A stretch of 13,705 nucleotides of DNA from a virus (IMGVR_UViG_3300036715_001196:64001-77705); one strand, 5' to 3'; positions 168-13,705 are shown, numbered from the stretch's first letter. Notes: generated from the sequence alone by a model not told the origin. A program made the numbers and translations.

Positions 168-197
168 TACTACATACAAAGACCGTAGGAGTACAAA

Positions 198-629: not shown

Positions 630-654
630 CTGTTGATTCCAAGTATCATATAAT
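626..654 (+). promoter_or_regulatory. sigma70-type promoter
   Basis: TTGACT-17-TATAAT. Confidence 0.9.
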
Positions 655-684
655 TACTACATACAAAGACCGTAGGAGTACAAA

Positions 685-1095: not shown

Positions 1096-1120
1096 CAGTT
1101 GATTCCAGCTATCATATAAT
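1092..1120 (+). promoter_or_regulatory. sigma70-type promoter
   Basis: TTGACA-17-TATAAT. Confidence 0.92.
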
Positions 1121-1150
1121 TACTACATACAAAGACCGTAGGAGTAGAAA

Positions 1151-1582: not shown

Positions 1583-1607
1583 CAGTTGATTCCAACTGTC
1601 ATATAAT
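1579..1607 (+). promoter_or_regulatory. sigma70-type promoter with a 9-bp palindrome across -35 and spacer
   Basis: TTGACA-17-TATAAT; TGACAGTTG-attc-CAACTGTCA at 1580-1601. Confidence 0.92.
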
Positions 1608-1637
1608 TACTACATACAAACACAGCAGGAGTAGAAA

Positions 1638-2165
1638 ATGTCTAATGCATGGGATCACTTACCAAATGCGAAACACATTGATGCAATACTTGCATCAGTT
1701 AAAGCACACCCAAAAGAATGGGTTGCGGCGTGGAATGCGGCAAGGGTTGCGGCGTGGAATGTGGTAAGGGATGCGGCAAGGGGTGCAGCGTGGAGTGCAG
1801 CCTGGTGTGTGGCGTGGGATGCGGCAAGGGGTACAGCGTGGGATGCGGCAAGTAGTGCGGCAAGTAGTGCGGCAAGTAGTGCGGCAAGGGATGCGGCATG
1901 GAGTGCGGTGTGGGATGCAGCCTGGGGTGCGGTAAGGGATGTAGCAAGTGGTGCGGTAAGGGATGCGGCATATTATGCGGCAAGGGGTGCGGCGTGGGAT
2001 GCAATACTTGCCCTTATCGCGTATGATGATTGCGCATATATGCTCGACTCCGATCCGGGCGAGTTAGAAATACTTGCTAAATTCGGTGATGAAAGAGCAA
2101 TACTTTTATTACCTGCATGTAAGGCATTTGCAGCTATTAAGATACATAAACCAGTTATTGCTTGA
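1638..2165 (+). CDS. Ala-Ala-X-X module protein, 175 aa, 23 modules
   Basis: AGGAG RBS, promoter 1579-1607, conserved termini. Confidence 0.92.
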   Translation: MSNAWDHLPNAKHIDAILASVKAHPKEWVAAWNAARVAAWNVVRDAARGAAWSAAWCVAWDAARGTAWDAASSAASSAASSAARDAAWSAVWDAAWGAVRDVASGAVRDAAYYAARGAAWDAILALIAYDDCAYMLDSDPGELEILAKFGDERAILLLPACKAFAAIKIHKPVIA

Positions 2166-2190
2166 CTGTTGATTCCAGCTATCATATAAT
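2162..2190 (+). promoter_or_regulatory. sigma70-type promoter
   Basis: TTGACT-17-TATAAT. Confidence 0.9.
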
Positions 2191-2220
2191 TACTACTCAT
2201 TAAACAAACAGGAGTACAAA

Positions 2221-2934
2221 ATGTCTAATGCATGGGATCACTTACCAAATGCGAAACACATTGATGTATTAATTGCATCAGTTAAAGCACGCCCAAAAGA
2301 ATGGAGTGCGGCATATTATGCGGCAAGGGATGCGGCATATTATGCGGCGTGGGATGCGGCAAGTAATGCGGCATGTAAGGGGGCAAGGCATGCAGCATGG
2401 GGTGCAGCAAGGGGTACGACACGGGAAGCGGCACAAGATGCGGCAAGGTATACGGCATATTATGCGGCAAGGGGTGCGGTGTGGGATGCAATACTTGCCC
2501 TTATTGTATATGATGATTGCGCATATATACTCGACTCCGATCCGGGCGAGTTAGAAATACTTGCTAAATTCGGTGATGAAAGAGCAATACTTTTATTACC
2601 TGCATGTAAGGTATTTGCAGCTATTAAACATGTTAAATGGATCGGACCAGTGTTTAGGTGTGCTAAATTCCATTTGTCGCCGGGAATCAAACAGAAGGAC
2701 GGGATGCTTAATTATATATGTCTAGCAATCGACAATGTTATCGCAGTTCCAGATGAAGCAAAGTCTGCTGCAAGGAAAATAATTAATGACAGGCTAGATG
2801 GCTATGCGGATGTATCTATTTGGTTGCAACATGTAGCTGGAATTCATCCGCGTCGACTTTCATATAAGGCAGTACAAACATTCCGGCACGAATGGCTCGA
2901 TGAATTGATTAAAGAGTTTTCAGTAAATGACTAA
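2221..2934 (+). CDS. Ala-Ala-X-X module protein (15 modules) fused to an unrelated ~100-aa C-terminal domain, 237 aa
   Basis: Matches the family up to ...AAIK (~2628), then continues in frame as HVKWIGPVFRCAKFHL...RHEWLDELIKEFSVND. Confidence 0.88.
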   Translation: MSNAWDHLPNAKHIDVLIASVKARPKEWSAAYYAARDAAYYAAWDAASNAACKGARHAAWGAARGTTREAAQDAARYTAYYAARGAVWDAILALIVYDDCAYILDSDPGELEILAKFGDERAILLLPACKVFAAIKHVKWIGPVFRCAKFHLSPGIKQKDGMLNYICLAIDNVIAVPDEAKSAARKIINDRLDGYADVSIWLQHVAGIHPRRLSYKAVQTFRHEWLDELIKEFSVND

Positions 2935-3445
2935 TAAAGAAATTGCAATTAAAGTCTTTAAAAGTCATTTAGCACTTGCACAAGATAGTCCAACTAAGTT
3001 TAAGAATACAGTTATCAACGAGATTATTAAGACACTTGACTGCGGGCTACGTGTTGCAACTGCATTCTATAATGAGGCTGTAAAACAAACCCCTAAGAGC
3101 ATAAAGCTCGTTCGCATTCCTGTCAAGAAGTTTATTATTAAAGACAAGCATAGTAAGGTTGAAACAGTCGAAGTTGAGAGTAGCGAACCTGAAGACGCAG
3201 ATTGTTATACTGTATTTGAGATTGTAGGGCAAGTGGTTGGTCGCACTAAGTCTTTTTCAACAAAGGGAGAAGCTACTAAGGATTTCAGTTTTAGAGTTAC
3301 ATATTGGCCGGACAGCATTTGGTTGATGATTAAAGGTCTTGGTAGGAACTCGGGTGAAGAGTATCGTGTTGAGCGAAAGATGAAATGGGAGTTGAAGCAT
3401 ATTCCTAAACATCTTCAAAAAGAAGTTGATATGGCTTCATCTTGA
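2927..3445 (+). CDS. Hypothetical protein, 172 aa, with an N-terminal helical motif shared with two other genes in the window
   Basis: 8-nt overlap with the upstream gene, weak AAAGAG RBS, long open frame. Motif VINEIIKTLDCGLRVATAFYN. Confidence 0.85.
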   Translation: MTNKEIAIKVFKSHLALAQDSPTKFKNTVINEIIKTLDCGLRVATAFYNEAVKQTPKSIKLVRIPVKKFIIKDKHSKVETVEVESSEPEDADCYTVFEIVGQVVGRTKSFSTKGEATKDFSFRVTYWPDSIWLMIKGLGRNSGEEYRVERKMKWELKHIPKHLQKEVDMASS

Positions 3446-3454
3446 TCATATAAT
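3426..3454 (+). promoter_or_regulatory. sigma70-type promoter with the -35 inside the upstream CDS
   Basis: TTGATA-17-TATAAT. Confidence 0.8.
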
Positions 3455-3484
3455 TACTACTCATTAAACAAACAGGGGTACAAA

Positions 3485-3907
3485 ATGTCTAATACGTGGG
3501 CTCACTTACCAAATGCGAAACACATTGATGTATTAATTGCATCAGTTAAAGCACACCCAAAAGAATGGAGTGCGGAGCGGGATGCGGCAATGGATGCGGA
3601 ATGGGACGCGGCAAGGGATGCAGCATGGAGTGCGGTGTGGGATGCAGCAAGGGATGCAGAGTGGGATGCGGCGTGGGATGCGGCGTGGGATGCGGCAAGG
3701 GATGTGACATGGGACGCGGCAAGTAGTGCGGCATGGAATGCAATCGTTGCCCTTATTGCGTATGATGATTGTGCATATATGCTCAACTCAGCCCCAAGCG
3801 AGTTAGAAATACTTGCTAAATTAGGTGATGGAAGAGCAATACTTTTATTACCTGCATGTAAGGCATTTGCAGCTATTAATAAGACACATACACCAGTTAT
3901 TGCTTGA
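3485..3907 (+). CDS. Ala-Ala-X-X module protein, 140 aa, 14 modules
   Basis: AGGGG RBS, promoter 3426-3454, conserved termini. Confidence 0.92.
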   Translation: MSNTWAHLPNAKHIDVLIASVKAHPKEWSAERDAAMDAEWDAARDAAWSAVWDAARDAEWDAAWDAAWDAARDVTWDAASSAAWNAIVALIAYDDCAYMLNSAPSELEILAKLGDGRAILLLPACKAFAAINKTHTPVIA

Positions 3908-3932
3908 CAGTTGATTCCAGCTGTCACACAAT
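3904..3932 (+). promoter_or_regulatory. Degenerate promoter cassette
   Basis: TTGACA-17-CACAAT; spacer identical to that of 6294-6322. Confidence 0.7.
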
Positions 3933-3965
3933 TACCACACATTAAACAACCCACAAGAGTACAAA

Positions 3966-4382
3966 ATGTCTAATCCATGGAATCACTTACCAAATGCTAA
4001 ACATATTGATGCAATACTTGCATCAATTAAAGCACACCCAAAAGAATGGGGTGCGGCGTGGGGTGCGGCAAGTAGTGCGGCAAGGGGTGCGGCATATTAT
4101 GCGGCAAGGGGCGCGGCAACCAGTGCGGCGTGGGAAGCGGCAAAGGGTGCAGCAAGGAAAGTGGAGTGGGGTGCGGCATATTATGCGGCAAGGGGCGCGG
4201 CAGGTGGTGCGACACAGGGCACGGCAAGGGATGCGGCGTGGGATGCAATCATTGCCCTTATCGCGTATGATGATTGCGCATATATGCTCAACTCAACTCC
4301 AGATGAACTTGAAATACTTGCTAAATTAGGCGATAGAAGAGCAATACTTTTGTTACCTGCATGTAAGGCATTTGCAGCCTAA
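3966..4382 (+). pseudogene. Decaying Ala-Ala-X-X module protein copy (16 modules, 138 aa, C-terminal 9 aa lost)
   Basis: A net 2-nt deletion (gcagctattaagata to gcagcctaagata) creates TAA at 4380-4382. Its -10 box is CACAAT and its RBS is AAGAG. It may still be translated from read-through mRNA. Confidence 0.7.
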
Positions 4383-4403
4383 GATACATAAACCAGTTAT
4401 TGC

Positions 4404-4432
4404 TTGACAAATAATCCCAACTGTCATATAAT
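4404..4432 (+). promoter_or_regulatory. sigma70-type promoter
   Basis: TTGACA-17-TATAAT. Confidence 0.92.
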
Positions 4433-4464
4433 TACTACATACACAAACATAACAGGAGTACAAA

Positions 4465-4830
4465 ATGCTTAAACGTGTTATTACGAAGGCCCACAAACAT
4501 CATGGTACAGCATACCCCGCTAAAGCAACAAAATACTTAGTGGACGTTAAACCCGGTGTAAGTGTTGCTATCTTCGACGACAGTACTGGTACAGAAGTTG
4601 CTGGTGCAAGCTTTAAGATTGGTGATCAGGCGGAATACGATTCCTTTAATTTAAGTTATTACGGGACTATCACTGCTATCAGTGAAAAGACTGTAACAAT
4701 AACATCACGCAAAGATACTCGAAACGAAAAAGTATATCGGTTGGATATGCACAAATTTTGCTGGCGTAATTACAACTTCAATTTAGAGAAAGCCCAAGCA
4801 GAGAATACTGAAACTAGCATGTATATCTAA
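4465..4830 (+). CDS. Hypothetical beta-rich phage-type protein, 121 aa
   Basis: AGGAG RBS and promoter 4404-4432. Motif FKIGDQAEYDSFNLSYYGTITAISEKTVTI suggests an SH3-like barrel (inference). Confidence 0.88.
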   Translation: MLKRVITKAHKHHGTAYPAKATKYLVDVKPGVSVAIFDDSTGTEVAGASFKIGDQAEYDSFNLSYYGTITAISEKTVTITSRKDTRNEKVYRLDMHKFCWRNYNFNLEKAQAENTETSMYI

Positions 4831-4831
4831 C

Positions 4832-5161
4832 ATGCCTGTCTTTGCATCATTAGGGCATCAAATGCAGTGTAACAAACGCAACGGTTATAAACCTGATCGT
4901 TGCGTTTGTGACAAAGACCCTGCCCTTAAAGGGGCTAAAGGTGGCAACTGTAACAGATAAGCATGCCAAGCACCTAATGCTTACTGGTACAACAAAGGCA
5001 CAAACAAATTCTATTGCGAAGATTGTGCTAAAATGATTAACCGGCAACCAACACAAGTCAGTACAGTACATACTTGTGTTCAATTCAGCCACCCGACGAA
5101 AATGTTGACTCCTAGAACCGTGTGTGCTAACATACAAACTTATGGAGGCACACATGGCTAG
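4832..5161 (+). pseudogene. Cys-rich, zinc-finger-like gene interrupted by an in-frame TAA at 4958-4960
   Basis: Manual translation: MPVFASLGHQMQCNKRNGYKPDRCVCDKDPALKGAKGGNCNR*ACQAPNAYWYNKGTNKFYCEDCAKMINRQ... The stop splits a C-x4-C...C-x2-C motif. ATG lies 1 nt after the upstream TAA. Confidence 0.65.
5105..5133 (+). promoter_or_regulatory. sigma70-type promoter, extended -10
   Basis: TTGACT-17-TAACAT with upstream TGn. Confidence 0.6.
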
Positions 5162-5285
5162 AGTCCCAACTCAAGAAGAAATTCAACACATCATGGAAAT
5201 TACGGGCTTGGAATACACCCAAGCCTATAATCACCTCGTACAATGCTACGAGTTACAAGACCGTAAGGCGCGAGGTAAATTATGA
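5154..5285 (+). CDS. Small protein, 43 aa (MARVPTQEEIQHIMEITGLEYTQAYNHLVQCYELQDRKARGKL)
   Basis: GGAGG 5144-5148, promoter 5105-5133. Below the ORF-track cutoff; translated by hand. Confidence 0.8.
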   Translation: MARVPTQEEIQHIMEITGLEYTQAYNHLVQCYELQDRKARGKL

Positions 5286-5389
5286 TATTCTGGTTAATGA
5301 TAGTATGTATATTTCTACTGTTGAATAATAGTATCTTCATTGGGCTTGCACTTTTAGCATTGATAATTTATTTAGATAAAAAGCGTTGA
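5282..5389 (+). CDS. Small membrane peptide, 35 aa (MIFWLMIVCIFLLLNNSIFIGLALLALIIYLDKKR)
   Basis: ATGA overlap with the previous gene, hydrophobic with a basic tail. The stop is the TGA of the next TTGACA. Confidence 0.65.
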   Translation: MIFWLMIVCIFLLLNNSIFIGLALLALIIYLDKKR

Positions 5390-5414
5390 CAACGGAACCT
5401 ACTTCCGGTATAAT
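5386..5414 (+). promoter_or_regulatory. sigma70-type promoter
   Basis: TTGACA-17-TATAAT; spacer contains CGGAA/TTCCG inverted repeat. Confidence 0.92.
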
Positions 5415-5451
5415 ACATACATCGCAAACATTATTATATAAGGAGTAGCAA

Positions 5452-6285
5452 ATGTCAATTCAACAAGTAAAAGATAAGTGTGCAGAGGTTTTCGCTAAAG
5501 CAACAGAACTGTACGGTGTTGATTGCTCTGCCGTAGCTATTAACTTCAACTTGCGTGGGCGTGTTGCAGGAAGCGCATCTAGACAAGGTTACTGTAATGG
5601 CCCACAAAAGCATACCTTAGAATTCAACAAAGACTTGATTGATCGTGAATTAGACACCATACTTACCGATGTAGTTCCGCATGAAATTGCTCATATCGTG
5701 TGTTTTATGAACCCAAGACTAGGTTCTAACCACGATGCTGGTTGGGCGCATGTATGCAGAAAGCTAGGCGGTACTGGTAGTCGAACACATAGTATGCAGA
5801 TTGTGTTTGGTAAAGGCAAAACATACGAATACACGACGACAGCTGGTGTAGCTATTCGTCTAAGCGAGCAGAGACATAAGGCAGTGCAAAAAGGTGGAAC
5901 ATTTACTTGCAAAGTTAGAAGCAAAGGTAAAATCAACAAGGAATGCTCGTTCACTATTGTCGGCATTGCTGGGCAAACACTTTCTAAACCAATTGCTGGT
6001 AACGTTCCAACAACACCGCTTGTAGATGGAGTGTCTGAAATACCAAAAGCACCTATAGTAGCAGATATTGCTAAAGAATTAAAAATACCTGTAGTGAAAG
6101 TAAAGTTAGCCAAAGGTAATGAAAGTAAGGCCGATGCTGCTAGACGTTTAATAAGTGTAGGCTTTGAAAGCGGCTTACACGAAAGTGAAATCATTGCCAG
6201 TATTATGCAAGCTAACGAGTTTGACTTACGTTTGGCTACTGCTTACTACAAAAACAATGCAAAGAAGCTTGGGTTTATTAGTTAA
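5452..6285 (+). CDS. sprT: SprT-like zinc metalloprotease (family-level call) with a C-terminal helical domain, 277 aa
   Basis: VVPHEIAHIVC (HExxH, aa 77-81), a downstream H-x-x-x-W motif (HDAGW) and N-terminal FNLRGRVAG, as in SprT proteins. AAGGAG RBS, promoter 5386-5414. Confidence 0.85.
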   Translation: MSIQQVKDKCAEVFAKATELYGVDCSAVAINFNLRGRVAGSASRQGYCNGPQKHTLEFNKDLIDRELDTILTDVVPHEIAHIVCFMNPRLGSNHDAGWAHVCRKLGGTGSRTHSMQIVFGKGKTYEYTTTAGVAIRLSEQRHKAVQKGGTFTCKVRSKGKINKECSFTIVGIAGQTLSKPIAGNVPTTPLVDGVSEIPKAPIVADIAKELKIPVVKVKLAKGNESKADAARRLISVGFESGLHESEIIASIMQANEFDLRLATAYYKNNAKKLGFIS

Positions 6286-6293
6286 AATAATAG

Positions 6294-6322
6294 TTGACAG
6301 TTGATTCCAGCTGTCATATAAT
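6294..6322 (+). promoter_or_regulatory. sigma70-type promoter
   Basis: TTGACA-17-TATAAT. Confidence 0.92.
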
Positions 6323-6352
6323 TACTACACATTAAACAAACAGGAGCAAACT

Positions 6353-6664
6353 ATGTATCCAATATTACTTAAATGTGTTTATATACACCTGCTAACAGTT
6401 GAAGCAAGTTCAGTTGAAGAAGCAATTGAAATTGCTAATGAAGATTATTGTATCTGTGATAACGATATTACTACAATCGAGGGTGATTGGGAATTGGATG
6501 ATACAGACTTTGCTTCTGCTGAAATGTTCAGTAATTGGCAAGACAGTCCCGTCGATGTTATCAAAGAAGCAAATAAGCTGTTGGTAGCTCACGGTTTAGT
6601 GTTTGTTGAGCAGGAAACCGATAAAGATACATATCAATTCGTATTGCAGAAAGTAGGCACATAA
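6353..6664 (+). CDS. Acidic hypothetical protein, 103 aa
   Basis: AGGAG RBS, promoter 6294-6322. Confidence 0.85.
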   Translation: MYPILLKCVYIHLLTVEASSVEEAIEIANEDYCICDNDITTIEGDWELDDTDFASAEMFSNWQDSPVDVIKEANKLLVAHGLVFVEQETDKDTYQFVLQKVGT

Positions 6665-6900
6665 TGAAAACAATTCAAGAAATCAAAACACTTGCTTCAC
6701 AGGCATCTTTCTTTGTACTACCATCCGGTACTCGTCTTCGTATGCGATACTGTAATGCGGAGATGTTCTCCGCATATGAAGAAGGCACTAATGTGAAGCA
6801 TTGGATTCGCTACGAAGCAGTCGATCTTAACGATGGCGAAACAGACTTTTTAGCATTAACCAGTTTGAAACACCCGCAGACTACACGGAGTATATCATGA
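6664..6900 (+). CDS. Hypothetical protein, 78 aa
   Basis: TAATG stop/start overlap with the upstream gene. Confidence 0.75.
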   Translation: MKTIQEIKTLASQASFFVLPSGTRLRMRYCNAEMFSAYEEGTNVKHWIRYEAVDLNDGETDFLALTSLKHPQTTRSIS

Positions 6901-7238
6901 CAGTAGATGTCCAAGGTAAGACAATTTGCGTCAATCAAAAGGTTGCTCGTGCTGCGAAATTACAAGTAAAGGATGGTTTGTGTATCCAAATCTGTACTGT
7001 AACACGTATCAATGAGGGGGCAGTATATCTCGACAATAGCAAACAGCCTATGAAGTTCCCTGAGCGGTTAGCTATTGTGGAACGTGCTCCACTCAATGAA
7101 GTTCAAGAGAATGTATTAAATGGGTATCACGAACGACTTGATAACGATGAGATTGCTGAAGAATACGACTTACTTGAAACCGAAGTTGCTGATATAATCG
7201 ATTGGCTGGATGAAAACGGCTATCATGTAAATGATTAA
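6897..7238 (+). CDS. Hypothetical protein, 113 aa, with a beta-rich N-terminus and an acidic HTH-like C-terminus
   Basis: ATGA overlap and GGAG RBS. C-terminal DEIAEEYDLLETEVADIIDWL has HTH-like spacing (inference). Confidence 0.8.
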   Translation: MTVDVQGKTICVNQKVARAAKLQVKDGLCIQICTVTRINEGAVYLDNSKQPMKFPERLAIVERAPLNEVQENVLNGYHERLDNDEIAEEYDLLETEVADIIDWLDENGYHVND

Positions 7239-7243
7239 AGTTG

Positions 7244-7272
7244 TTGACAAATGATTTCATTCGCAGTATAAT
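7244..7272 (+). promoter_or_regulatory. sigma70-type promoter
   Basis: TTGACA-17-TATAAT. Confidence 0.92.
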
Positions 7273-7302
7273 TATTACACATTAAACAAACAGGAGTACA
7301 AG

Positions 7303-7692
7303 ATGGAATCATTGCAAGAACGCATCCTTGAAGTATGTAATAACTTCTCAGAAGCAAGGTTCTCTAATTACTACAGCGGTCGTTGTATGTATAACCGTCA
7401 GTGTGTTGGTATTACAGGCAGCATGCATGAATGCATGAATGCAATTGCACACCTTGTCAAGAGCATGACTTCCGAATTGTGTCGAACTGCACGTGATGCA
7501 GATACACAGGGGGATATGGTTGAGTCACTTGATAACATGCAAGATCGCTTCGAACGTGATATCGATACTCTGCTTGACTTCAAGCAAGACAGTATGGGGT
7601 GTGATATTATTATCTATTGGGAACGTTTAACACCTATCGAAAACTTCGAAGACGAAGACGAAGACGAAGACGAAGACGAAGACGAGTTTTGA
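7303..7692 (+). CDS. Hypothetical protein, 129 aa, with an (ED)6 acidic tail
   Basis: AGGAG RBS, promoter 7244-7272. Confidence 0.88.
   Translation: MESLQERILEVCNNFSEARFSNYYSGRCMYNRQCVGITGSMHECMNAIAHLVKSMTSELCRTARDADTQGDMVESLDNMQDRFERDIDTLLDFKQDSMGCDIIIYWERLTPIENFEDEDEDEDEDEDEF
7648..7683 (+). repeat. (GAAGAC)6 coding microsatellite
   Basis: Six perfect hexamer units encoding EDEDEDEDEDED. Confidence 0.95.
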
Positions 7693-7717
7693 CATAGTAA
7701 TAAATCTGCATTACAAT
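7689..7717 (+). promoter_or_regulatory. sigma70-type promoter overlapping a terminator
   Basis: TTGACA-17-TACAAT. Confidence 0.8.
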
Positions 7718-7748
7718 ATGGGCTGCTTATGTAGCCCATATTGTTTTT
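7713..7748 (+). terminator. Intrinsic terminator
   Basis: ACAATATGGGCTGC-ttat-GTAGCCCATATTGT (14 bp, one G-U) followed by TTTT. Confidence 0.75.
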
Positions 7749-7763
7749 ATAAAGAGTAATAGA

Positions 7764-8012
7764 ATGATTAAAATACTTATAGTAGGTTTCCTAATCGGAA
7801 CATGGTACGGTATCTTTACCTCGGAGCTTGCAGGGTCTTTGATCTGTATTACATCCGCAATACTAGCATACTATGCAGAGGCATATCCTATAAAACAAAG
7901 GCACACTCGTAAGCATGCCCCTAGTCAGCCCAACACACTGCAACTGCTTGACGAGCAGTGTTGTGAGTCGTCAAGCTTAAATTCTGACCCTAGGTTTCCA
8001 ACCCAAAAGTGA
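7764..8012 (+). CDS. Putative membrane protein, 82 aa
   Basis: Two hydrophobic N-terminal segments. Promoter 7689-7717; RBS is weak (AAAGAG). Confidence 0.6.
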   Translation: MIKILIVGFLIGTWYGIFTSELAGSLICITSAILAYYAEAYPIKQRHTRKHAPSQPNTLQLLDEQCCESSSLNSDPRFPTQK

Positions 8013-8091
8013 AAACCAGATTTGGTTTTTAAAATTGGAAATTTAATTCCAAATCCTATGCGAAAATCTTGCCTATAGGTCTAAACAGGTA

Positions 8092-8120
8092 TTGACCTAA
8101 GTCCCTTTGTGTCATATAAT
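8092..8120 (+). promoter_or_regulatory. sigma70-type promoter
   Basis: TTGACC-17-TATAAT followed by the cassette leader. Confidence 0.85.
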
Positions 8121-8150
8121 TACTACATATTAAACAAACAGGAGCATAAC

Positions 8151-8363
8151 ATGGCACAATTTTTATTAGTATCAACTGAGCAACGGCTTGCAATATTGAA
8201 GCGTTCGTTATCGACATTTATTGATCGATGTGAAGGTACTGAATGGGAGGCTGATATTAACGCAGCACAGACTATGTTAGATGAGTTACAGTCTAACACT
8301 GACGTAACAACAGCTACATCTGCAGTCCTTAGTAATTGGTGTGATACTGTACCTGCACAATGA
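8151..8363 (+). CDS. Hypothetical protein, 70 aa (start reassigned from 8109)
   Basis: Cassette leader with AGGAG and ATG 8151 exactly 30 nt after TATAAT 8115-8120. Confidence 0.8.
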   Translation: MAQFLLVSTEQRLAILKRSLSTFIDRCEGTEWEADINAAQTMLDELQSNTDVTTATSAVLSNWCDTVPAQ

Positions 8364-8436
8364 CGCGCTAGTATTCTATATTCCACAAATTTATTGTAAT
8401 ATAGCAACCAAAGTAGCCAAATGAATGCCTGAATAC

Positions 8437-8464
8437 TTGACTACTTTTATTTTGACTGTATAAT
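8437..8464 (+). promoter_or_regulatory. sigma70-type promoter with no downstream gene
   Basis: TTGACT-16-TATAAT. Confidence 0.6.
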
Positions 8465-8470
8465 ATAGAT

Positions 8471-8586
8471 ATTCTATATATTCACATAGGCACTACGTAT
8501 CTCGTCTACCGGAACAGGGGTTAGCCGATCTCTACAAGGGGTAGTTGGAACAGTATTCGAAAGGATGTGTTCCGACTATTTTTTTT
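8471..8586 (+). ncRNA. Candidate ~115-nt non-coding RNA
   Basis: Promoter 8437-8464 followed by a stretch with no ATG or RBS-led ORF, ending in a GAAA-loop hairpin plus T8. The 5' end is estimated. Confidence 0.45.
8542..8586 (+). terminator. Intrinsic terminator
   Basis: TAGTTGGAACA...GAAA loop...TGTTCCGACTA followed by T8. Confidence 0.75.
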
Positions 8587-8680
8587 GGATTATGTTTCAG
8601 GATTTGAAAATCTAGATTGGGAGTATAGTATAGGTTGGGTAGTGTATTGCTGTATAGCATTCACACTCCTAGGTTTTCAA

Positions 8681-8713
8681 TCCTACATCGAATTCCTACA
8701 TCGAATTCCTACA
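8681..8713. repeat. 13-nt tandem repeat TCCTACATCGAAT x2.5
   Basis: Units start at 8681, 8694 and 8707 (partial). Confidence 0.9.
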
Positions 8714-8740
8714 AAGGTACTGTAGTAAGCACTTACTTTG

Positions 8741-8869
8741 GTACCTCACACCTCGCGGCCTATCATCTAGGGAAAATTTGCGAGGTTGACCAACAACTGC
8801 TGTACCTCACACCTCGCGGCCTATCATCTAGGGAAAATTTGCGAGGTTGATCAATGGCTGTACCTCACA
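8741..8869. repeat. Identical 49-nt direct repeat x2 (period 61) plus a partial third copy
   Basis: GTACCTCACACCTCGCGGCCTATCATCTAGGGAAAATTTGCGAGGTTGA at 8741-8789 and 8802-8850; GTACCTCACA again at 8860-8869. Confidence 0.93.
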
Positions 8870-8944
8870 ACGAACTAATAGGTTGGTCGTGTGTTACCCG
8901 TGAAGTACAGCCACAAGAATACAGCATTGCAAAGTATTCAGTCA

Positions 8945-8974
8945 CAAATAAAGCCCCTTGCGGGGCTTTATTTG
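8945..8974 (-). terminator. Intrinsic terminator, probably bidirectional
   Basis: Perfect 13-bp stem CAAATAAAGCCCC/GGGGCTTTATTTG with a GCAA loop on the - strand, 7 nt past the stop of 8982..9389. Confidence 0.88.
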
Positions 8975-8981
8975 CTTTCTG

Positions 8982-9389
8982 TTACGCTTTGACTAATGCA
9001 GCTTTCTTTGTCTTTGCAGCTTTTTCGATCGCTGCATCTGCTTCTGCTTCTGTTACACCAAGCAAGACAAGTGAATTATCTTTCTTTTTGTACACATTAA
9101 ACAGCTTTACTGCTGGCGCTGTTTCAATAACTTCTGCTACTTTCTTTTTGCGCCCGCCGTTATTTTTGCCTTCGGGGCGGCCTAAACCAACTACAAGCTC
9201 GGGATGTGCAGCTTTGCACTGTTTGAATGCGAAATTGTAGTGTGTTGCTGCCGCTGCTCGCGTGCAATCAAATTCCAGTTCTAACCAAGCAAGAATCTCT
9301 TTACGGAAACGTGTGTTGCCGAGTTCTGCACGTTGTGGCAACATTTCCATAAATTTGTTGTTTGCTGCTGGGCGAATACCTTTGTCCAT
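8982..9389 (-). CDS. Hypothetical protein, 135 aa (MDKGIRPAANNKF...; start reassigned from 9452), sharing a helical motif with 2927..3445
   Basis: AAGGAG RBS and a consensus promoter upstream on the - strand; terminator 8945-8974 downstream. Confidence 0.88.
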   Translation of the reverse strand: MDKGIRPAANNKFMEMLPQRAELGNTRFRKEILAWLELEFDCTRAAAATHYNFAFKQCKAAHPELVVGLGRPEGKNNGGRKKKVAEVIETAPAVKLFNVYKKKDNSLVLLGVTEAEADAAIEKAAKTKKAALVKA

Positions 9390-9420
9390 TTTACTACTCC
9401 TTATGTGTTTGTGTATCAAA

Positions 9421-9449
9421 ATTATACTGCGAATGGAACTACTTGTCAA
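9421..9449 (-). promoter_or_regulatory. sigma70-type promoter (- strand, proximal)
   Basis: TTGACA-17-TATAAT on the reverse complement. Confidence 0.92.
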
Positions 9450-9666
9450 CAACTATTTGCATTTATTTTTGCATCTAGTTAAGGAGTTGTATTTCCTAAC
9501 TCCATGTATTGATTATATAGATAGTAGTTCCACGTGTCAACCACTATTTTACCAAAATTTAAATTATTTTTAAATCGTGCAGCTTATGCTCGTCAATCAT
9601 GTTTGTCGTCGCGAGGTGTACTCTGCTAGTAAAATAAATGCAAATAGTAGTTGACAAGTAGTTCCA
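9434..9666. repeat. 36-bp inverted repeat (35/36 identical): 9434-9469 and 9631-9666
   Basis: AAAATAAATGCAAATAGT(T/A)GTTGACAAGTAGTTCCA, covering the upstream A-tract and -35 of two divergent promoters. Confidence 0.9.
9512..9540 (-). promoter_or_regulatory. sigma70-type promoter (- strand, distal)
   Basis: TTGACA-17-TATAAT on the reverse complement. Confidence 0.85.
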
Positions 9667-9679
9667 GGTATCATATAAT
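9651..9679 (+). promoter_or_regulatory. sigma70-type promoter
   Basis: TTGACA-17-TATAAT with an A-rich upstream tract. Confidence 0.92.
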
Positions 9680-9709
9680 TACTACACATTAAACAAACAG
9701 GAGTAGAAA

Positions 9710-10153
9710 ATGTCTAATCCATGGGATCACTTACCAAATGCGAAACACATTGATGCCATAATTGCATCAGTTGAAGCACACCCAGAAGAATGGGCTGCGG
9801 CGCGGACTGCGGCTCGGGTTGCGGCGTGGGATGCGGCAAGGAATGCGGTGTGGAATGCGGCATATAGTGCGGCGTGTGATGCGGCAAGGAATGCGGAGTG
9901 GAATGCGGCAGGTGGTGCGGCGGCGGATGCGGCAAGTAGTGCGGCAAGTAGTGCGGCATATTATGCAGCAAGGGGCGCAGCGGGGGATGCAATCATTGCC
10001 CTTATCGCGTATGATGATTGCGCATATATGATCGACTCAAATCCGGGCGAGCTTGAAATACTTGCTAAATTCGGTAATGAAAAAGCAATTTTATTATTAC
10101 CTGCATGTAATGCATTTGCAGCTATTAAGATACATAAACCAGTTATTGCTTGA
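9710..10153 (+). CDS. Ala-Ala-X-X module protein, 147 aa, 16 modules; orphan copy 5.3 kb from the main array
   Basis: AGGAG RBS, promoter 9651-9679, conserved termini. Confidence 0.92.
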   Translation: MSNPWDHLPNAKHIDAIIASVEAHPEEWAAARTAARVAAWDAARNAVWNAAYSAACDAARNAEWNAAGGAAADAASSAASSAAYYAARGAAGDAIIALIAYDDCAYMIDSNPGELEILAKFGNEKAILLLPACNAFAAIKIHKPVIA

Positions 10154-10209: not shown

Positions 10210-10410
10210 ATGCTTAACCAAAAACAACAAGCACTAAGTCTATTAGCCCAATCTAAAGCGGCAATGGACAATGCCATAATATTGTTTAATCAAGCTGCTG
10301 ATGCTGTAGCTGACTTGGATTTAGACTTCGATGAAGACCCGTGCTATGCTGCTAGCGAGTTTGAACAACACATAAATGATTTTCGAGATGTATTAAATAA
10401 TGATCGATAA
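10210..10410 (+). CDS. Small acidic helical protein, 66 aa
   Basis: AGGGG RBS, promoter 10150-10178. Confidence 0.8.
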   Translation: MLNQKQQALSLLAQSKAAMDNAIILFNQAADAVADLDLDFDEDPCYAASEFEQHINDFRDVLNNDR

Positions 10411-10443
10411 CTGAAAGTAAGTGTGCTATAATGCACTTACTTT
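10404..10443 (+). promoter_or_regulatory. Extended -10 promoter inside a 10-bp inverted repeat
   Basis: TCGATA-17-TATAAT with TGn; AAAGTAAGTG/CACTTACTTT. Confidence 0.78.
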
Positions 10444-10462
10444 GAAAGTTTAGGAGTGCAGT

Positions 10463-10660
10463 ATGAAACTATGTGGGCACAGTCGCAGCGACAAACTAGA
10501 ATGCAAGTACGGTTGCTGTACAGGAAAACCTAGCAAGATGAAAAATTGCCGTAGTATTGTAGATAAAGTTAATCGTAAAACAGCTCGTCAAGAAGCAAAA
10601 AAAGCACAAGACTGCAACATTAGCAAACAGTTCGAGGAAGACGATTATGAAAATAATTAG
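10463..10660 (+). CDS. Small basic Cys-containing protein, 65 aa
   Basis: AGGAG RBS, extended -10 promoter at 10424-10432. Motif CKYGCC. Confidence 0.8.
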   Translation: MKLCGHSRSDKLECKYGCCTGKPSKMKNCRSIVDKVNRKTARQEAKKAQDCNISKQFEEDDYENN

Positions 10661-10865
10661 CTTACCTTCAAACGTTCGTGCTGTCAAGGCTAAGAAGCTA
10701 ACAGCAGGAATGAAGATGTATTTTCATAATTCATCGCCCATGTTTGTTAATAGCATTGATACAAACAGCGAGGGCAAAGTTGTTGTTCACTGTGGATATA
10801 CCGACGGTGACGAAGCTACTCCTATCTTGTTTAACAGCGAGGACAGGGCTTTAATTATAAATTAA
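10647..10865 (+). CDS. Hypothetical protein, 72 aa
   Basis: GAGGA RBS; overlaps the upstream gene by 14 nt. Confidence 0.75.
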   Translation: MKIISLPSNVRAVKAKKLTAGMKMYFHNSSPMFVNSIDTNSEGKVVVHCGYTDGDEATPILFNSEDRALIIN

Positions 10866-10868
10866 TGG

Positions 10869-10909
10869 TTGACAGTTGGGAGTATCTATGTAATAATATA
10901 GACACTAAC
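10869..10909 (+). promoter_or_regulatory. sigma70-type promoter with the -10 inside an inverted repeat
   Basis: TTGACA-17-AATAAT with TGn; AGTATCTAT/ATAGACACT (8/9). Confidence 0.72.
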
Positions 10910-10928
10910 ACACTGAAGGAGAAACAAA

Positions 10929-11216
10929 ATGGCTTACAAAGTTCCGGGCACTAAATGCGATCCAAGCTTAGAAACTTGTTCAGCTCAAGGTCGTTGTACT
11001 TTTGAACTTAAAGCAGCAGCAGCAGAAGCTGGTTTGCCGTTGCGTAACTTCTCAATAAGCTATCCGTCACATCGCCGTATTCGTAAAGCGGCTAAGCGTT
11101 ATGATACAGGCATGCCTGCTATCGGGAACTTTGAGCGTAGCATCTACAAGATGTTCCGCGATTTCGAAGCTGAGTTTAGAGCAGAATTTATTGATAAGCC
11201 GATATTCTCTGGTTGA
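10929..11216 (+). CDS. Hypothetical protein, 95 aa
   Basis: AAGGAG RBS, promoter 10869-10897. Confidence 0.82.
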   Translation: MAYKVPGTKCDPSLETCSAQGRCTFELKAAAAEAGLPLRNFSISYPSHRRIRKAAKRYDTGMPAIGNFERSIYKMFRDFEAEFRAEFIDKPIFSG

Positions 11217-11252
11217 CAGTTGGATGCTAGTGTGTTATAGTAGCACACTAGC
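11213..11252 (+). promoter_or_regulatory. sigma70-type promoter with the -10 inside an inverted repeat
   Basis: TTGACA-17-TATAGT with TGn; GCTAGTGTG/CACACTAGC (9/9). Confidence 0.85.
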
Positions 11253-11264
11253 TTAGGAGCTATC

Positions 11265-11417
11265 ATGAATAGTTACAGAAAGACGCAGTATGTTTTACAT
11301 GTCCTCAGGGGTTTGCGGCAGAAGTTTAAGCCGTTGTCCGAGAAGCAGTATAATGCACTATGCAACAGAATTGAGTTAAGTATTTTTGTAGATGGTTTAA
11401 AAATTGTCAAAAAGTAG
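11265..11417 (+). CDS. Small basic protein, 50 aa (MNSYRKTQYVLHVLRGLRQKFKPLSEKQYNALCNRIELSIFVDGLKIVKK)
   Basis: AGGAG 11255-11259, promoter 11213-11241. Similar to 12679..12810. Translated by hand. Confidence 0.78.
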   Translation: MNSYRKTQYVLHVLRGLRQKFKPLSEKQYNALCNRIELSIFVDGLKIVKK

Positions 11418-11454
11418 TTGACATTGGTAAGTAGTTGTACTATAATGTACTTAC
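11418..11454 (+). promoter_or_regulatory. sigma70-type promoter with the -10 inside an inverted repeat
   Basis: TTGACA-17-TATAAT; GTAAGTA/TACTTAC. Confidence 0.9.
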
Positions 11455-11500
11455 TGAACAAGTAGTTCATTCCGTAGTTAAACTTTTAAGGAGTAGTAAA

Positions 11501-11704
11501 ATGAAGAAATTATTTTTGTTGGTTGCTATGTTTGCTGTTATGGTATCCCCTTTCTCAGCATTTGCTGGCTCGAACACAATGCCACCAAAGCCGCCAGTGT
11601 ATGGTAAAGTTGGTTGCCAAGCAGACGGCACATTCACCCTCGTCACTTACACGTTGCATGGTGTAACATACACTGTCAAGTTGCCACATTACAAGTGCTA
11701 TTAA
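11501..11704 (+). CDS. Small exported protein with a Sec-type signal peptide, 67 aa (start reassigned from 11435)
   Basis: AAGGAG RBS. MKK, hydrophobic core, then AFA|G cleavage motif. Two Cys in the mature part. Confidence 0.8.
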   Translation: MKKLFLLVAMFAVMVSPFSAFAGSNTMPPKPPVYGKVGCQADGTFTLVTYTLHGVTYTVKLPHYKCY

Positions 11705-11723
11705 TCTAGCAACAACTTAAAAG

Positions 11724-11747
11724 AAGCAGGCTACGGTCTGCTTTTTT
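11724..11747 (+). terminator. Intrinsic terminator with a C(UACG)G tetraloop
   Basis: AAGCAGGC-TACG-GTCTGCTT followed by TTTT. Confidence 0.88.
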
Positions 11748-11816
11748 AATGGACACAAGTACCTCGGAACCTAGCCGTAGGTCCATATATAAATTGTGAG
11801 ATACTTAAAATAGTGC

Positions 11817-11855
11817 TTGACAGGTAGGGACATTTCATCTACAATGTACTTACCT
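11817..11855 (+). promoter_or_regulatory. sigma70-type promoter with the -10 inside an inverted repeat
   Basis: TTGACA-17-TACAAT; AGGTAGGGACATT/AATGTACTTACCT (11/13 Watson-Crick). Confidence 0.85.
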
Positions 11856-11875
11856 TAACTTAATTGGAGTACAGT

Positions 11876-12109
11876 ATGTCTACTACTATCCCTACAGAAC
11901 AGCGCGTAAGCTTTCTTATTGCTACATACAGCGAAGGTGGGTATGAAGCTGCACAAATCACAAAAAAGAACCCATTGTACTACATAACCGAGCTTGAAGA
12001 TATAGGCCCAATGTATATTATGGATGATTACGGCAACACTGTAAAAGTCGACTGGGACATACACGCACAACAATGCGTTGCATACCCGCCGCTTAACGCA
12101 TTAACATAG
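11876..12109 (+). CDS. Hypothetical protein, 77 aa (start reassigned from 11864)
   Basis: GGAG RBS; ATG 30 nt after TACAAT 11840-11845. Confidence 0.78.
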   Translation: MSTTIPTEQRVSFLIATYSEGGYEAAQITKKNPLYYITELEDIGPMYIMDDYGNTVKVDWDIHAQQCVAYPPLNALT

Positions 12110-12181
12110 TCTTATGTACACGCCTTTTGTATGCAGACACTGGGCTGCATACGTTGCGGCAGGGGCTACAAAATAAAGGAC

Positions 12182-12207
12182 AAAAAGCAGGCTACGGTCT
12201 GCTTTTT
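12182..12207 (+). terminator. Intrinsic terminator, duplicate of 11724-11747
   Basis: AAAAAGCAGGC-TACG-GTCTGCTTTTT. Confidence 0.88.
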
Positions 12208-12350
12208 AATGGCCACAAGTATCTCGGAACTACTAACAGAGCTAGTCGAGCCATAGTTGTGAGGTATATAAGCCTTTAACTGATCCTACCTCGGAACTTA
12301 TATAACCTAACCTAAGGTTATGCTTTGTCTTCGAGAGTATAAAATAAAGG

Positions 12351-12390
12351 TTGACTACTGGAAATATTTCATTTATACTATATTTACAGT
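12351..12390 (+). promoter_or_regulatory. sigma70-type promoter with the -10 inside an inverted repeat
   Basis: TTGACT-17-TATACT; ACTGGAAATAT/ATATTTACAGT (10/11). Confidence 0.82.
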
Positions 12391-12409
12391 GAAACAATAG
12401 GAGTACAAA

Positions 12410-12616
12410 ATGTCACAAGATGCTGATCTTTCAACAGAGGAAATTCAAAAATATACTAACATAGTATCGCTTGAAAATAGTGGTGCATACATTACTCCTA
12501 CCGAGAAGCAATGGATGCTTGACCTTGCGAAACGTTTGCGTATTCCTGTCCCTGTGCAGCAGGCTTATATAGCTGGGAAGATGGGCTACAATATCGAAGG
12601 TCTAACTGTAATTTAA
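12410..12616 (+). CDS. Hypothetical protein, 68 aa
   Basis: AGGAG RBS, promoter 12351-12379. Confidence 0.82.
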   Translation: MSQDADLSTEEIQKYTNIVSLENSGAYITPTEKQWMLDLAKRLRIPVPVQQAYIAGKMGYNIEGLTVI

Positions 12617-12619
12617 TTG

Positions 12620-12657
12620 TTGGCAAGTGGAGGTAAGTGCGTTACAATGTACTTACT
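12620..12657 (+). promoter_or_regulatory. sigma70-type promoter with the -10 inside an inverted repeat
   Basis: TTGGCA-17-TACAAT; GGTAAGTGC/GTACTTACT (7 Watson-Crick + 2 G-T). Confidence 0.75.
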
Positions 12658-12678
12658 TTAACACACAAGGAGTATAAC

Positions 12679-12810
12679 ATGTCCGGATTTGATTTAGTAC
12701 GTTACAGCGCACACTTAGCACGCGCAGTCTTGCAAGGCTTTAAACCACTCAGTGCTTCACAGTTTGCTATGCGTGTTTCTAAAATTAAATTCAACTCAAC
12801 TAATTGTTGA
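12679..12810 (+). CDS. Small protein, 43 aa (MSGFDLVRYSAHLARAVLQGFKPLSASQFAMRVSKIKFNSTNC)
   Basis: AAGGAG RBS, promoter 12620-12648. Similar to 11265..11417. The stop lies in the next TTGACA. Confidence 0.78.
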   Translation: MSGFDLVRYSAHLARAVLQGFKPLSASQFAMRVSKIKFNSTNC

Positions 12811-12844
12811 CAGCTGAGTGTAAATGCGATATAATGTATTTACA
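12807..12844 (+). promoter_or_regulatory. sigma70-type promoter with the -10 inside an inverted repeat
   Basis: TTGACA-17-TATAAT; TGTAAAT/ATTTACA. Confidence 0.9.
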
Positions 12845-12865
12845 TTGATACACAGGAGTTTGAAA

Positions 12866-13045
12866 ATGAAATTCGGTAAGTGGCTAGTGTACGCAAAAGG
12901 GAAAGTATCGGAACTTCCCAAAGAAGTTACAGCAAGCTGGGATCTAGATTTTGTGCCTCATGACACAGAGCTCTTAGTATTTGCAACACAGGGCGGCTTT
13001 AGCTGGGTACGTGCAACTGACAAAGCAGAAGAGTATGCACAGTGA
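12866..13045 (+). CDS. Small protein, 59 aa (start reassigned from 12824)
   Basis: AGGAG RBS; ATG 30 nt after TATAAT 12830-12835. Confidence 0.78.
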   Translation: MKFGKWLVYAKGKVSELPKEVTASWDLDFVPHDTELLVFATQGGFSWVRATDKAEEYAQ

Positions 13046-13133
13046 AAAGAGTAATTATAAACACATTAGCATTCCTAATTTGTGTGTTTGCAATTGCCGG
13101 TCCGTTTTTAATATACACGTTTCAAACCTAGAG

Positions 13134-13363
13134 AGCAATATTAGATTGCTATTTTTATTTGCTATTTTTATTTCCTATTTTTGCCTCGTGTTCTGACCAC
13201 AGGCCTATATGTAAAACACGAGAGCATATACGCGCTACCCTACATAAACTAAAAAGCAATCTAATATTGCTTTTTTATTTCCTATTTTTACCTCGCTGCT
13301 TGCCTGCCGTCGCCTATATGTAAAACACGAGAGCATATACTCGCTACCCTACATAAACTAAAA
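13134..13363. repeat. Two imperfect direct-repeat units, each with a 17-bp palindromic site, a T-rich tract and a 52-nt block
   Basis: 52-nt block at 13203-13254 and 13312-13363 (1 mismatch). The 17-mers at 13134-13150 and 13255-13271 are exact reverse complements. Confidence 0.88.
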
Positions 13364-13705
13364 GACTATGTCTTGACACCTTTACCATTTAAGGATAGAT
13401 ACCTCACGCATTAAACACGGACCTAAAGCAGGTTATAGATTATCTCCGAGGTACTAAAAGACTTGTTGACAAATGACAACACAGATACCTCACGCATTAA
13501 ACACGAACCTAAAGCAGGTTATACATTGTCCCCGAGGTACTAAAAGACTATGTCTTGACACCTTTACCATTTAAGGATAGATACCTCACGCATTAAACAC
13601 GAACCTAAAGCAGGTTATACATTGTCCCCGAGGTACTAAAAGACTATGTCTTGACACCTTTACCATTTAAGGATAGATACCTCACGCATTAAACACGAAC
13701 CTAAA
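13358..13705. repeat. Non-coding tandem array with 96/86/96-nt units plus a partial fourth, running off the window
   Basis: CTAAAAGACT starts at 13358, 13454, 13540 and 13636. The complete units contain TTGACA and TACCTC-N42-GAGGTA. Confidence 0.93.

Follow-up and report, generated by a model that had tools for sequence, protein, structure and literature searches.

Inverted repeats at the -10 boxes of eight consecutive promoters in a fragment of a jumbo phage genome

In a virus sequence of 13,705 nucleotides (nt) (IMGVR_UViG_3300036715_001196:64001-77705), eight consecutive promoters between positions 10404 and 12844 each carry an inverted repeat at the -10 box. We refer to these promoters as P1 to P8 and to the whole 13,705-nt stretch as the window; positions are counted from its first letter unless they are assigned to a contig. 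The repeats are real and exceed chance, and they are specific to this set of promoters. Our preferred interpretation, to which we assign a probability of about 0.45, is that they would form intercistronic RNA hairpins in read-through transcripts and serve there as stabilizers or attenuators. For an RNA-level role of any kind, we put the odds slightly above even.

Eight consecutive promoters carry inverted repeats

An initial annotation of this DNA, made from the sequence alone, had described eight promoters with arms at the -10 box. An ungapped inverted-repeat scan centered near the -10 box independently recovered all eight repeats between 10404 and 12844, each at the position described. Every repeat brackets or overlaps the -10 hexamer of a sigma70-type promoter that scores 10-12 of 12, and all eight promoters have a spacer of 17 nt and an A+T-rich stretch of 15 nt upstream. 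The arms are A+U-rich, span 7-13 base pairs (bp), and are separated by a gap, or Watson-Crick loop, of 8-14 nt.

The concern that AT-matched shuffled promoters might give similar repeats was not borne out. The summed repeat score of the eight promoters is 60, compared with 29.4 ± 2.9 (maximum 42) in 2000 shuffles that kept both promoter hexamers. A score of at least 7 was reached by 1.6% of shuffled promoters and at 4% of arbitrary window positions. The window contains 16 other strong promoters on the + strand (139-10150), most of which belong to one strongly conserved cassette that we call class I; their repeat scores of 3-6 are at background. Class I promoters do have a repeat between the -35 region (TGACAG) and the sequence before the -10 box (CTGTCA), which we dismissed as it varies without compensation. 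A weak promoter-like match at 12756 (10/12) lies within an open reading frame (ORF), has no repeat, and is probably not a promoter.

Arm sequences, natural variants, and the operator alternative

The arms had initially been described as unrelated in sequence, which overstated their diversity. When left and right halves are combined into chimeras, they cross-pair within the group P1, P4, P5, and P7 and within the pair P6 and P8, with P2 and P3 standing alone, so that the eight repeats represent four arm families. A common right arm, (G)TACTTAC or GTATTTAC, has a fixed start 1-2 nt past the -10 box. We found the pattern TTGACA - 17 nt - TAYAATGTACTTAC in 21 further viral stretches of IMG/VR, nearly all of which lack a complementary left arm. 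Because the right arm mostly occurs elsewhere without the left arm, the left-arm complement is an added feature rather than a by-product of the promoter consensus, and the right arm is an ordinary, widespread promoter-proximal motif. The position of the left arm relative to the -10 box varies, and the hexamers shared between promoters are spaced by 12, 16, or 18 nt. This varying distance is hard to square with a dimeric operator and easily accommodated by a hairpin.

The natural variants are few and fall short of a formal covariation test, but most of them preserve or improve the pairing. At P1, a variant on contig L094 has a 2-nt insertion (+CA) in the right arm that results in a perfect 13-bp stem with a loop of exactly TATAAT (-20.6 kcal/mol). 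The only mismatch of P2, an A.C, becomes a G-C pair through 10884 A>G in two metagenome runs (X2 and X3). At P7, 12632 G>A converts a G.U to an A-U pair and co-occurs with 12623 G>A, a change that brings the -35 hexamer to consensus; a further P7 variant, 12627 G>A, breaks one peripheral pair. Two substitutions at P5 (11830 A>G and 11847 T>C) affect the two partners of one base pair. A paralogue of P5 lies beyond the window end (L087:4397). In its stem two changes lead to G.U pairing and one pair is broken, and two changes in its loop create a new six-base left arm (AAGTAC / GTACTT) that is complementary to the conserved right arm.

The initial annotation had argued that selection acts on pairing and not on one operator. 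This view is upheld by the presence of at least four arm families, by a gap that varies while the right arm is fixed, by pair-restoring variants, and by strand-asymmetric mismatches. An operator for a single repressor with a constant half-site and constant spacing is ruled out by the four families and the variable distance of 12, 16, or 18 nt. We regard palindromic operators more generally, at which a dimeric phage or host repressor would cover the -10 box and shut off early genes, as very unlikely. Operators commonly overlap the -10 box, four of the promoters cross-pair, and P1, P7, and P8 have a common geometry (GTAAGT/GTAAAT - 12 nt - ACTTAC/ATTTAC). However, the arm families in the window are unrelated to one another, and more are found elsewhere; the half-sites are spaced differently even though the right arm keeps a constant position relative to the -10 box, and neither strand-asymmetric G.T mismatches nor pair-restoring variants are expected of protein half-sites. 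No DNA-binding domain was found in the ten neighboring ORFs, which is weak evidence.

Strand and energy comparisons favor sense-strand RNA

We folded both strands of each repeat identically. As sense-strand RNA, the eight hairpins have predicted energies of -6.8 to -17.2 kcal/mol and z scores of -1.4 to -5.1, with z at or below -2.76 in seven of them (P4 is weak). The minimum free energy is lower on the sense strand in 8/8 cases, with a sum of -97.7 kcal/mol versus -64.5 kcal/mol for the antisense strand, and the antisense hairpins of P4, P6, P7, and P8 are no better than shuffles. Class I promoters have the opposite strand tendency. The G-T mismatches noticed in the initial annotation are real and fall mostly on the + strand: the eight hairpins contain 14 G.U pairs in the sense direction versus 3 in the antisense direction, compared with 469 versus 415 across every inverted repeat of the contig, taken as background (Fisher p = 0.024). 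The strand asymmetry in energy is likewise larger than background (-3.6 versus -0.57 kcal/mol, Mann-Whitney p = 0.001). These data favor sense-strand RNA as the molecule that folds, and they speak against both a symmetric cruciform and protein half-sites.

Folded with DNA parameters, the repeats yield weak hairpins (-2.3 to -9.2 kcal/mol), and three of the eight on the sense strand and about half on the antisense strand are no better than shuffles. These energies bear on the alternative that the structure acts in DNA, where a supercoil-driven cruciform or a hairpin in the non-template strand would present the -10 box to sigma70, or hide it, and so tune melting or timing. The repeats are centered on the A+T-rich -10 box, the easiest point of opening, a non-template-strand hairpin would also predict a + strand bias, and the hairpins of P1, P2, and P3 are equally good on both strands. 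Besides the weak energies, however, the asymmetry of G.T for A.C is unexpected of a symmetric cruciform, and loops of 8-14 nt with arms of 7-13 bp are unfavorable for cruciform extrusion. We therefore consider a DNA-level structure unlikely. The initial annotation had left three options side by side, namely a cruciform, a single-stranded DNA hairpin, and an RNA hairpin in read-through transcripts. The last of these fits best (+ strand in 8/8, G.U pairs at 14:3, and RNA z scores better than DNA z scores), and the cruciform fits worst, since the bottom-strand hairpins of four of the eight promoters are at shuffle level.

A proposed role in read-through transcripts

The architecture of the eight promoters is shared. 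In each, the promoter spacer contains the left arm, the -10 box is in or beside the loop, and the right arm extends over the discriminator and the predicted start site. The genes follow one another in tandem, with upstream stop codons 3-11 nt before the left arm and, in two cases, inside the -35 hexamer. The next Shine-Dalgarno (SD) sequence, of the GGAG type, begins 2-15 nt past the right arm (about 40 nt for P4) within an intergenic space of about 60 nt, and the ATG is 24-25 nt from the predicted start (17 nt for P3 and 48 nt for P4). Judging from promoter geometry, transcription should begin about 7 nt past the -10 box, inside the right (3') arm. Because the promoter's own transcript would start within the right arm, the hairpin would be limited to polycistronic RNA that began at an upstream promoter and read through. 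In such RNA the hairpin may act as an intercistronic element, chiefly as a 3' protective or processing boundary of the upstream cistron, and possibly in a second role as a weak attenuator of read-through. We infer both read-through itself and the specific role, whether in stability or in attenuation.

A different RNA-level role would be translational discrimination as in T4 gene e, soc, and I-TevI, where read-through RNA is poorly translated and the promoter's own transcript is translated well. The topology matches these T4 cases (PMC3014915), and in 7/8 the hairpin ends 2-15 nt ahead of the SD sequence. The predicted accessibility of the initiation region is also lower in read-through RNA for P1, P2, P5, and P7 (0.35-0.47 versus 0.56-0.73). 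It is unchanged or higher, however, for P3, P4, P6, and P8, and the differences hang on non-specific long-range pairs. Moreover, none of the eight stems includes the SD sequence or the AUG, and the upstream and internal promoters belong to the same sigma70 class with no evident temporal switch. Across all eight promoters, sequestration of the ribosome-binding site was not found by predicted accessibility, with differences that were small and inconsistent. We consider translational discrimination quite unlikely.

Several observations weigh against the read-through hairpin. No RNA run is among the sequencing runs that hold this sequence, and the start sites, read-through, and RNA ends are all predicted. 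The class I arrays manage without a hairpin despite being just as compact, which means that the element is no general necessity. P5 and P6 follow canonical terminators, after which little read-through is expected, yet they carry hairpins. Terminator activity of the hairpins themselves is doubtful, as the stems are A+U-rich, have Watson-Crick loops of 8-14 nt, and are followed by no U-tract. The sense-strand bias would also fit a single-stranded hairpin in non-template DNA. In addition, the stronger G.U figures rest on the eight hairpins of the initial annotation and on a 17-hairpin set (25 versus 6) in which six extra hairpins from the same genome were partly picked by sense-strand energy. When all inverted repeats near any promoter-like site are counted, weak ones included, the G.U ratio is 26 versus 13 (p = 0.10).

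If the hairpin does surround the -10 box in this way, one stretch of 40 nt would be a promoter as DNA and a structural signal as RNA derived from upstream. A promoter's own messages and read-through messages could then be told apart without extra sequence, and the spacer, which is usually thought to be free, would become constrained. The early regions of phages contain many small genes, each with a strong promoter, and the balance of their expression and the evolution of their cassettes are only partly understood. For annotation, inverted repeats over phage -10 boxes need not be operators.

The individual promoters

All eight promoters are on the + strand. P1 (10404-10443) has a weak -35 element (10404-10409) and an extended -10 element (TGcTATAAT, with the -10 box at 10427-10432). 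Its arms, AAAGTAAGTG (10414-10423) and CACTTACTTT (10434-10443), form 10 perfect bp, and the RNA folds with -13.2 kcal/mol (z -4.1). The upstream stop codon is at 10408-10410 and the downstream ATG at 10463. P2 (10869-10906) has TTGACA at 10869-10874, a -10 box at 10892-10897, and an ATG at 10929. The arms AGTATCTAT (10881-10889) and ATAGACACT (10898-10906) pair over 9 bp with one A.C mismatch (10884/10903), and the RNA fold has -13.0 kcal/mol (z -3.25).

P3 (11213-11252) combines TTGACA (11213-11218) with TATAGT (11236-11241) and has arms of 9 bp, GCTAGTGTG (11226-11234) and CACACTAGC (11244-11252). Its RNA fold is the 12-bp stem with a 3-nt loop at -17.2 kcal/mol (z -3.67). The TGA of the upstream gene (11214-11216) lies within the -35 hexamer, the SD sequence begins 2 nt past the stem, and the ATG is at 11265. 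P4 (11418-11454) is a consensus promoter with its -35 hexamer at 11418-11423 and its -10 hexamer at 11441-11446. Its 7-bp arms, GTAAGTA (11427-11433) and TACTTAC (11448-11454), give the statistically weakest fold of the eight (-9.0 kcal/mol, z -1.44). The gene behind P4 (11501-11704, + strand) encodes a protein of 67 amino acids (aa) whose N-terminus resembles a signal peptide (MKKLFLLVAMFAVMVSPFSAFA) and which has four cysteines; this small early protein is probably secreted or periplasmic.

P5 (11817-11855) has its -35 hexamer at 11817-11822, TACAAT at 11840-11845, and an ATG at 11876. The arms (11822-11834 and 11843-11855) cover 13 positions with two mismatches, one G.T and one G.A, and fold with -11.4 kcal/mol (z -3.03). 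P6 (12351-12390) has TTGACT at 12351-12356, TATACT at 12374-12379, and an ATG at 12410; its arms, ACTGGAAATAT (12357-12367) and ATATTTACAGT (12380-12390), pair over 11 bp with one G.A mismatch, and the RNA fold has -6.8 kcal/mol (z -2.76).

P7 (12620-12664) has TTGGCA at 12620-12625, TACAAT at 12643-12648, and an ATG at 12679. Its arms lie at 12632-12640 and 12649-12657, where the scan (12633-12656) found 6 bp exactly and 8-10 bp with G.T pairs. The RNA fold spans 12627-12664 with four G.U pairs and has -16.1 kcal/mol (z -5.13), versus -5.5 kcal/mol (z -0.44) on the bottom strand. P8 (12807-12845) is a consensus promoter (-35 at 12807-12812, -10 at 12830-12835, ATG at 12866) whose upstream TGA (12808-12810) also lies within the -35 hexamer. 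The arms TGTAAAT (12819-12825) and ATTTACA (12838-12844) pair exactly over 7 bp and, with two G.T pairs, give a 10-bp stem at 12818-12845; the RNA fold has -11.0 kcal/mol (z -3.47), versus -3.4 kcal/mol on the bottom strand.

The use of an upstream TGA as part of the next TTGACA, seen at 11214-11216 and 12808-12810 and also in class I cassettes, is an overlap of coding and promoter sequence. Two of the genes under hairpin promoters, a 50-aa ORF (11265-11417) and a 43-aa ORF (12679-12810), have a common motif (L..GFKPLS..Q / LRQKFKPLSEKQ) and look like diverged paralogues.

The source genome

The window is the final 13.7 kb of a 77.7-kb IMG/VR virus record, and its end is the contig end. The larger encoded proteins are phage-like and include a NinI-type phosphatase, a MoxR-type ATPase, a pair of VWA and metallopeptidase proteins, and homing endonucleases. 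The MoxR-type ATPase shares 56% identity with its counterpart in PA5oct-like jumbo Pseudomonas phages, and 59% and 54% with its counterparts on two IMG/VR contigs, G001 (259 kb) and G002. The record is therefore a piece of the genome of an uncultured jumbo phage that is distantly related to PA5oct.

Almost every gene is on the + strand, and the contig has 83 promoter-like sites on this strand that score at least 10/12, many of them perfect (TTGACA - 17 nt - TATAAT). The eight hairpin promoters are a set separate from class I and drive ten small ORFan genes. On the minus strand, two perfect consensus promoters lie at 9421-9540, and AT skew is strongly negative in the bin 9001-9500.

None of the ten neighboring ORFs had a Pfam or PHROG match (0/10), and near and distant DNA similarity searches against GenBank phages gave no match. 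A tblastn search with the 95-aa ORF likewise gave no match, and a related-locus search with the same ORF retrieved no relatives; with the 77-aa ORF it retrieved a single match (L026, 58% identical) on a contig without this promoter style, which is uninformative. Searching IMG/VR for exact copies of the class I cassette returned 0 matches. Rfam gave nothing relevant, with one GcvB match below threshold at 13027-13278. Among sequencing runs, the sequence is held by four DNA metagenome runs (microbial mat and sediment), which were available as contigs only, and near-identical sequence is also present in several Joint Genome Institute (JGI) and Logan contigs.

Hairpin promoters elsewhere in the genome and in relatives

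Further hairpins that bracket a -10 box, with quite different arms, occur on the same contig at contig positions 5326, 8706, 29099, 30697, 33645, and 46102. A repeat score of at least 7 was found for 10/65 contig promoters with a 17-nt spacer, compared with 1.5 ± 1.1 in shuffles. At the 8706 site, a 14-bp perfect stem with a TATAAT loop (contig 8711-8750) directly follows a 212-aa ORF, with A5 before and T5 after, and looks like a terminator that has a promoter -10 box as its loop. The terminator scan does not call this site, whose T-run lies within the stem.

Cassettes of the same style occur in the distant relative G001. Stems of 13-14 positions surround the -10 box at three G001 promoters, and three others have hairpins in the spacer with the right arm entering the -10 box; two of the latter have GAAA loops, and the stem sequences all differ. 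Hairpins of this second kind, wholly in the spacer and with the right arm entering the -10 box, were observed at contig position 11117 and on the minus strand of contig L009 (570, 2217, and 5076). An example of a spacer hairpin is ATAGCACC-GAAA-GGTGCTAT; the 8-bp stems differ in sequence, and two have GAAA loops.

In the cultured phage PA5oct, 5/30 consensus promoters have repeats of the -10-bracketing type, versus 0.93 ± 0.9 (maximum 3) in shuffles. Its hairpin promoters lie near positions 19871, 145855, 154712, 158206, and 216211 of MK797984.1. The PA5oct transcriptome paper lists 32 promoters without mention of hairpins, and its RNA-sequencing (RNA-seq) data are published (PMC7318152). The enrichment in PA5oct makes the idea directly testable in a cultured phage with published RNA-seq.

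We consider it rather improbable, but somewhat less so than the alternatives to the read-through hairpin, that nesting of promoters in sense hairpins is a general, as yet undescribed rule of a jumbo-phage lineage that includes this phage, G001, and PA5oct, or alternatively that a non-template hairpin offers the -10 box as a single-stranded loop and makes a pre-melted promoter. If the lineage rule were true, every such gene would make two mRNA isoforms with differing fates, an unstructured one from its own promoter and a structured one from read-through.

Terminators, repeats, and rearrangement joints

Two canonical intrinsic terminators are present on the + strand between the hairpin promoters. 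Copy 1 (11721-11770, with the terminator at 11721-11748) has a G+C-rich stem at 11724-11743, a T-run, and a conserved tail. Copy 2 (12182-12230, with the terminator at 12182-12209) is a direct repeat of copy 1 with a G+C-rich stem followed by a T-run. Each copy is about 50 nt long, and the common tail is TTTTTAATGGmCACAAGTAyCTCGGAAC. Both were read from the + strand sequence; the terminator scan lists these stems on the minus strand only. The same scan called 0/8 promoter hairpins, and no U-tract follows any of their stems, so we rejected a reading of the eight hairpins as intrinsic terminators. The phage uses ordinary terminators, unlike the promoter hairpins.

Between 11716 and 12220, metagenome depth rises to as much as about five times that of neighboring sequence; the terminator element or the P5 gene copy is therefore repeated elsewhere or in related phages. 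On the JGI contig L087, the genome continues past the window with a second, 91%-identical copy of the P5 promoter and its 77-aa gene. The end of the contig is a non-coding block (13146-13705) with a 109-nt unit in 1.9 copies (13159-13363) and a 96-nt tandem repeat in 3.7 copies (13357-13705), the last 2.3 of which are identical.

Short metagenome contigs connect different promoter cassettes (for example 10912>12643, 11829>12364, and 12402>13057), with matching sides of at most 30 nt at 85% likeness. These joints suggest, though not securely, strain variants in which intervening genes have been deleted or swapped, in the style of the shuffling of PeSL cassettes, the combinations of early promoter and stem-loop found in T4-type phages (Arbiol et al. 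2010, PMC2839356; Comeau et al. 2014, PMC4122927).

The repeats could also have no function of their own: they might have arisen as by-products when cassettes recombined, or through template-switch (quasi-palindrome) mutation around the conserved right arm, perhaps to serve only as PeSL-like recombination hot spots. The promoter cassettes appear to be rearrangement junctions in the metagenomes, a P5 paralogue exists elsewhere in the genome, and template switching tends to produce perfect palindromes such as that of the P1 variant. Selection is indicated, however, by the unbroken run of 8/8 promoters, by independent arm families, by hairpins in distant relatives, and by G.U pairs kept over random mismatches; class I cassettes also recombine, yet have no such repeats. 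The odds of this explanation are, in our view, as low as those of translational discrimination.

Comparison with known systems

Intercistronic stabilizing hairpins, such as repetitive extragenic palindromic (REP)-type and phage intergenic elements, and intrinsic terminators are sense stem-loops that lie directly past a stop codon in polycistronic RNA. The eight hairpins resemble them in being sense stem-loops after a stop codon and differ in enclosing a -10 box and in lacking the U-tract of a terminator. To our knowledge, no intercistronic hairpin or terminator is built around the -10 box of the next gene.

The hairpin promoters of phage N4 have a short stem and a 3-nt loop on the template strand, have no sigma70 boxes, and are used by a giant virion RNA polymerase. 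They share with the promoters described here a hairpin as part of an early promoter. Here, in contrast, the sigma70 boxes are consensus, the strand bias is toward the non-template (sense) strand, and the Watson-Crick loops vary from 8 to 14 nt; an N4-type promoter is ruled out by the sigma70 boxes, the loop size, and the non-template stability. ORFs reach at most 516 aa over the first 60 kb of this 77.7-kb contig and at most 277 aa in the window; the contig is a fragment of the genome.

The initial annotation had named PeSL and N4 as precedents, of which N4 differs as described and PeSL is only partly apt. The PeSL stem-loop lies just upstream of the promoter and acts as a terminator (PMC4122927, PMC2839356). 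Near-consensus sigma70 early promoters are common to the two systems, as are an A+T-rich upstream region, an SD sequence, and a start codon. Both are repeated before small ORFan genes in a hyperplastic region and are associated with stem-loops, and the cassettes here may also lie, like PeSLs, at the rearrangement junctions of strains. The two systems differ in that the PeSL loop is upstream and often based on G/C tracts, whereas the hairpins here enclose the -10 box, have A+U-rich arms that differ by cassette, and lack a U-tract. The hosts of PeSL cassettes are T4-type phages, and here the element is in a jumbo phage distantly related to PA5oct. No hairpin is found upstream of the -35 hexamer, because the stop codon is at or in it.

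A closer topological precedent, which the initial annotation did not name, is provided by the leaders of T4 gene e, soc, 49, and I-TevI, in which the promoter lies inside an inhibitory RNA hairpin and only longer transcripts fold (PMC3014915). In both systems the promoter is in the 5' part of the hairpin. The T4 promoter's own transcript lacks the 5' arm, as those of P1 to P8 would if they begin at the predicted start. The 3' arm of the T4 leaders sequesters the SD sequence or AUG and the internal promoter is of a later class, whereas here the SD sequence and AUG are free, with no sequestered ribosome site, and all promoters are of the sigma70 type.

In the literature we found no description of hairpins that enclose the -10 box in phage early promoters, and the transcriptome papers on PA5oct, phiKZ, and 201phi2-1 make no mention of them. 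By the position of the stem-loop, the hairpin promoters stand outside PeSL and represent the PeSL idea in collapsed form. The stem-loop overlaps the promoter because the intergenic space of about 60 nt is all promoter, with stop codons at or inside the -35 hexamer, as if the stem-loop half of a PeSL-type cassette had collapsed onto the promoter half. The promoter-in-hairpin arrangement is a compact, so far undescribed variant of phage promoter/stem-loop cassettes.

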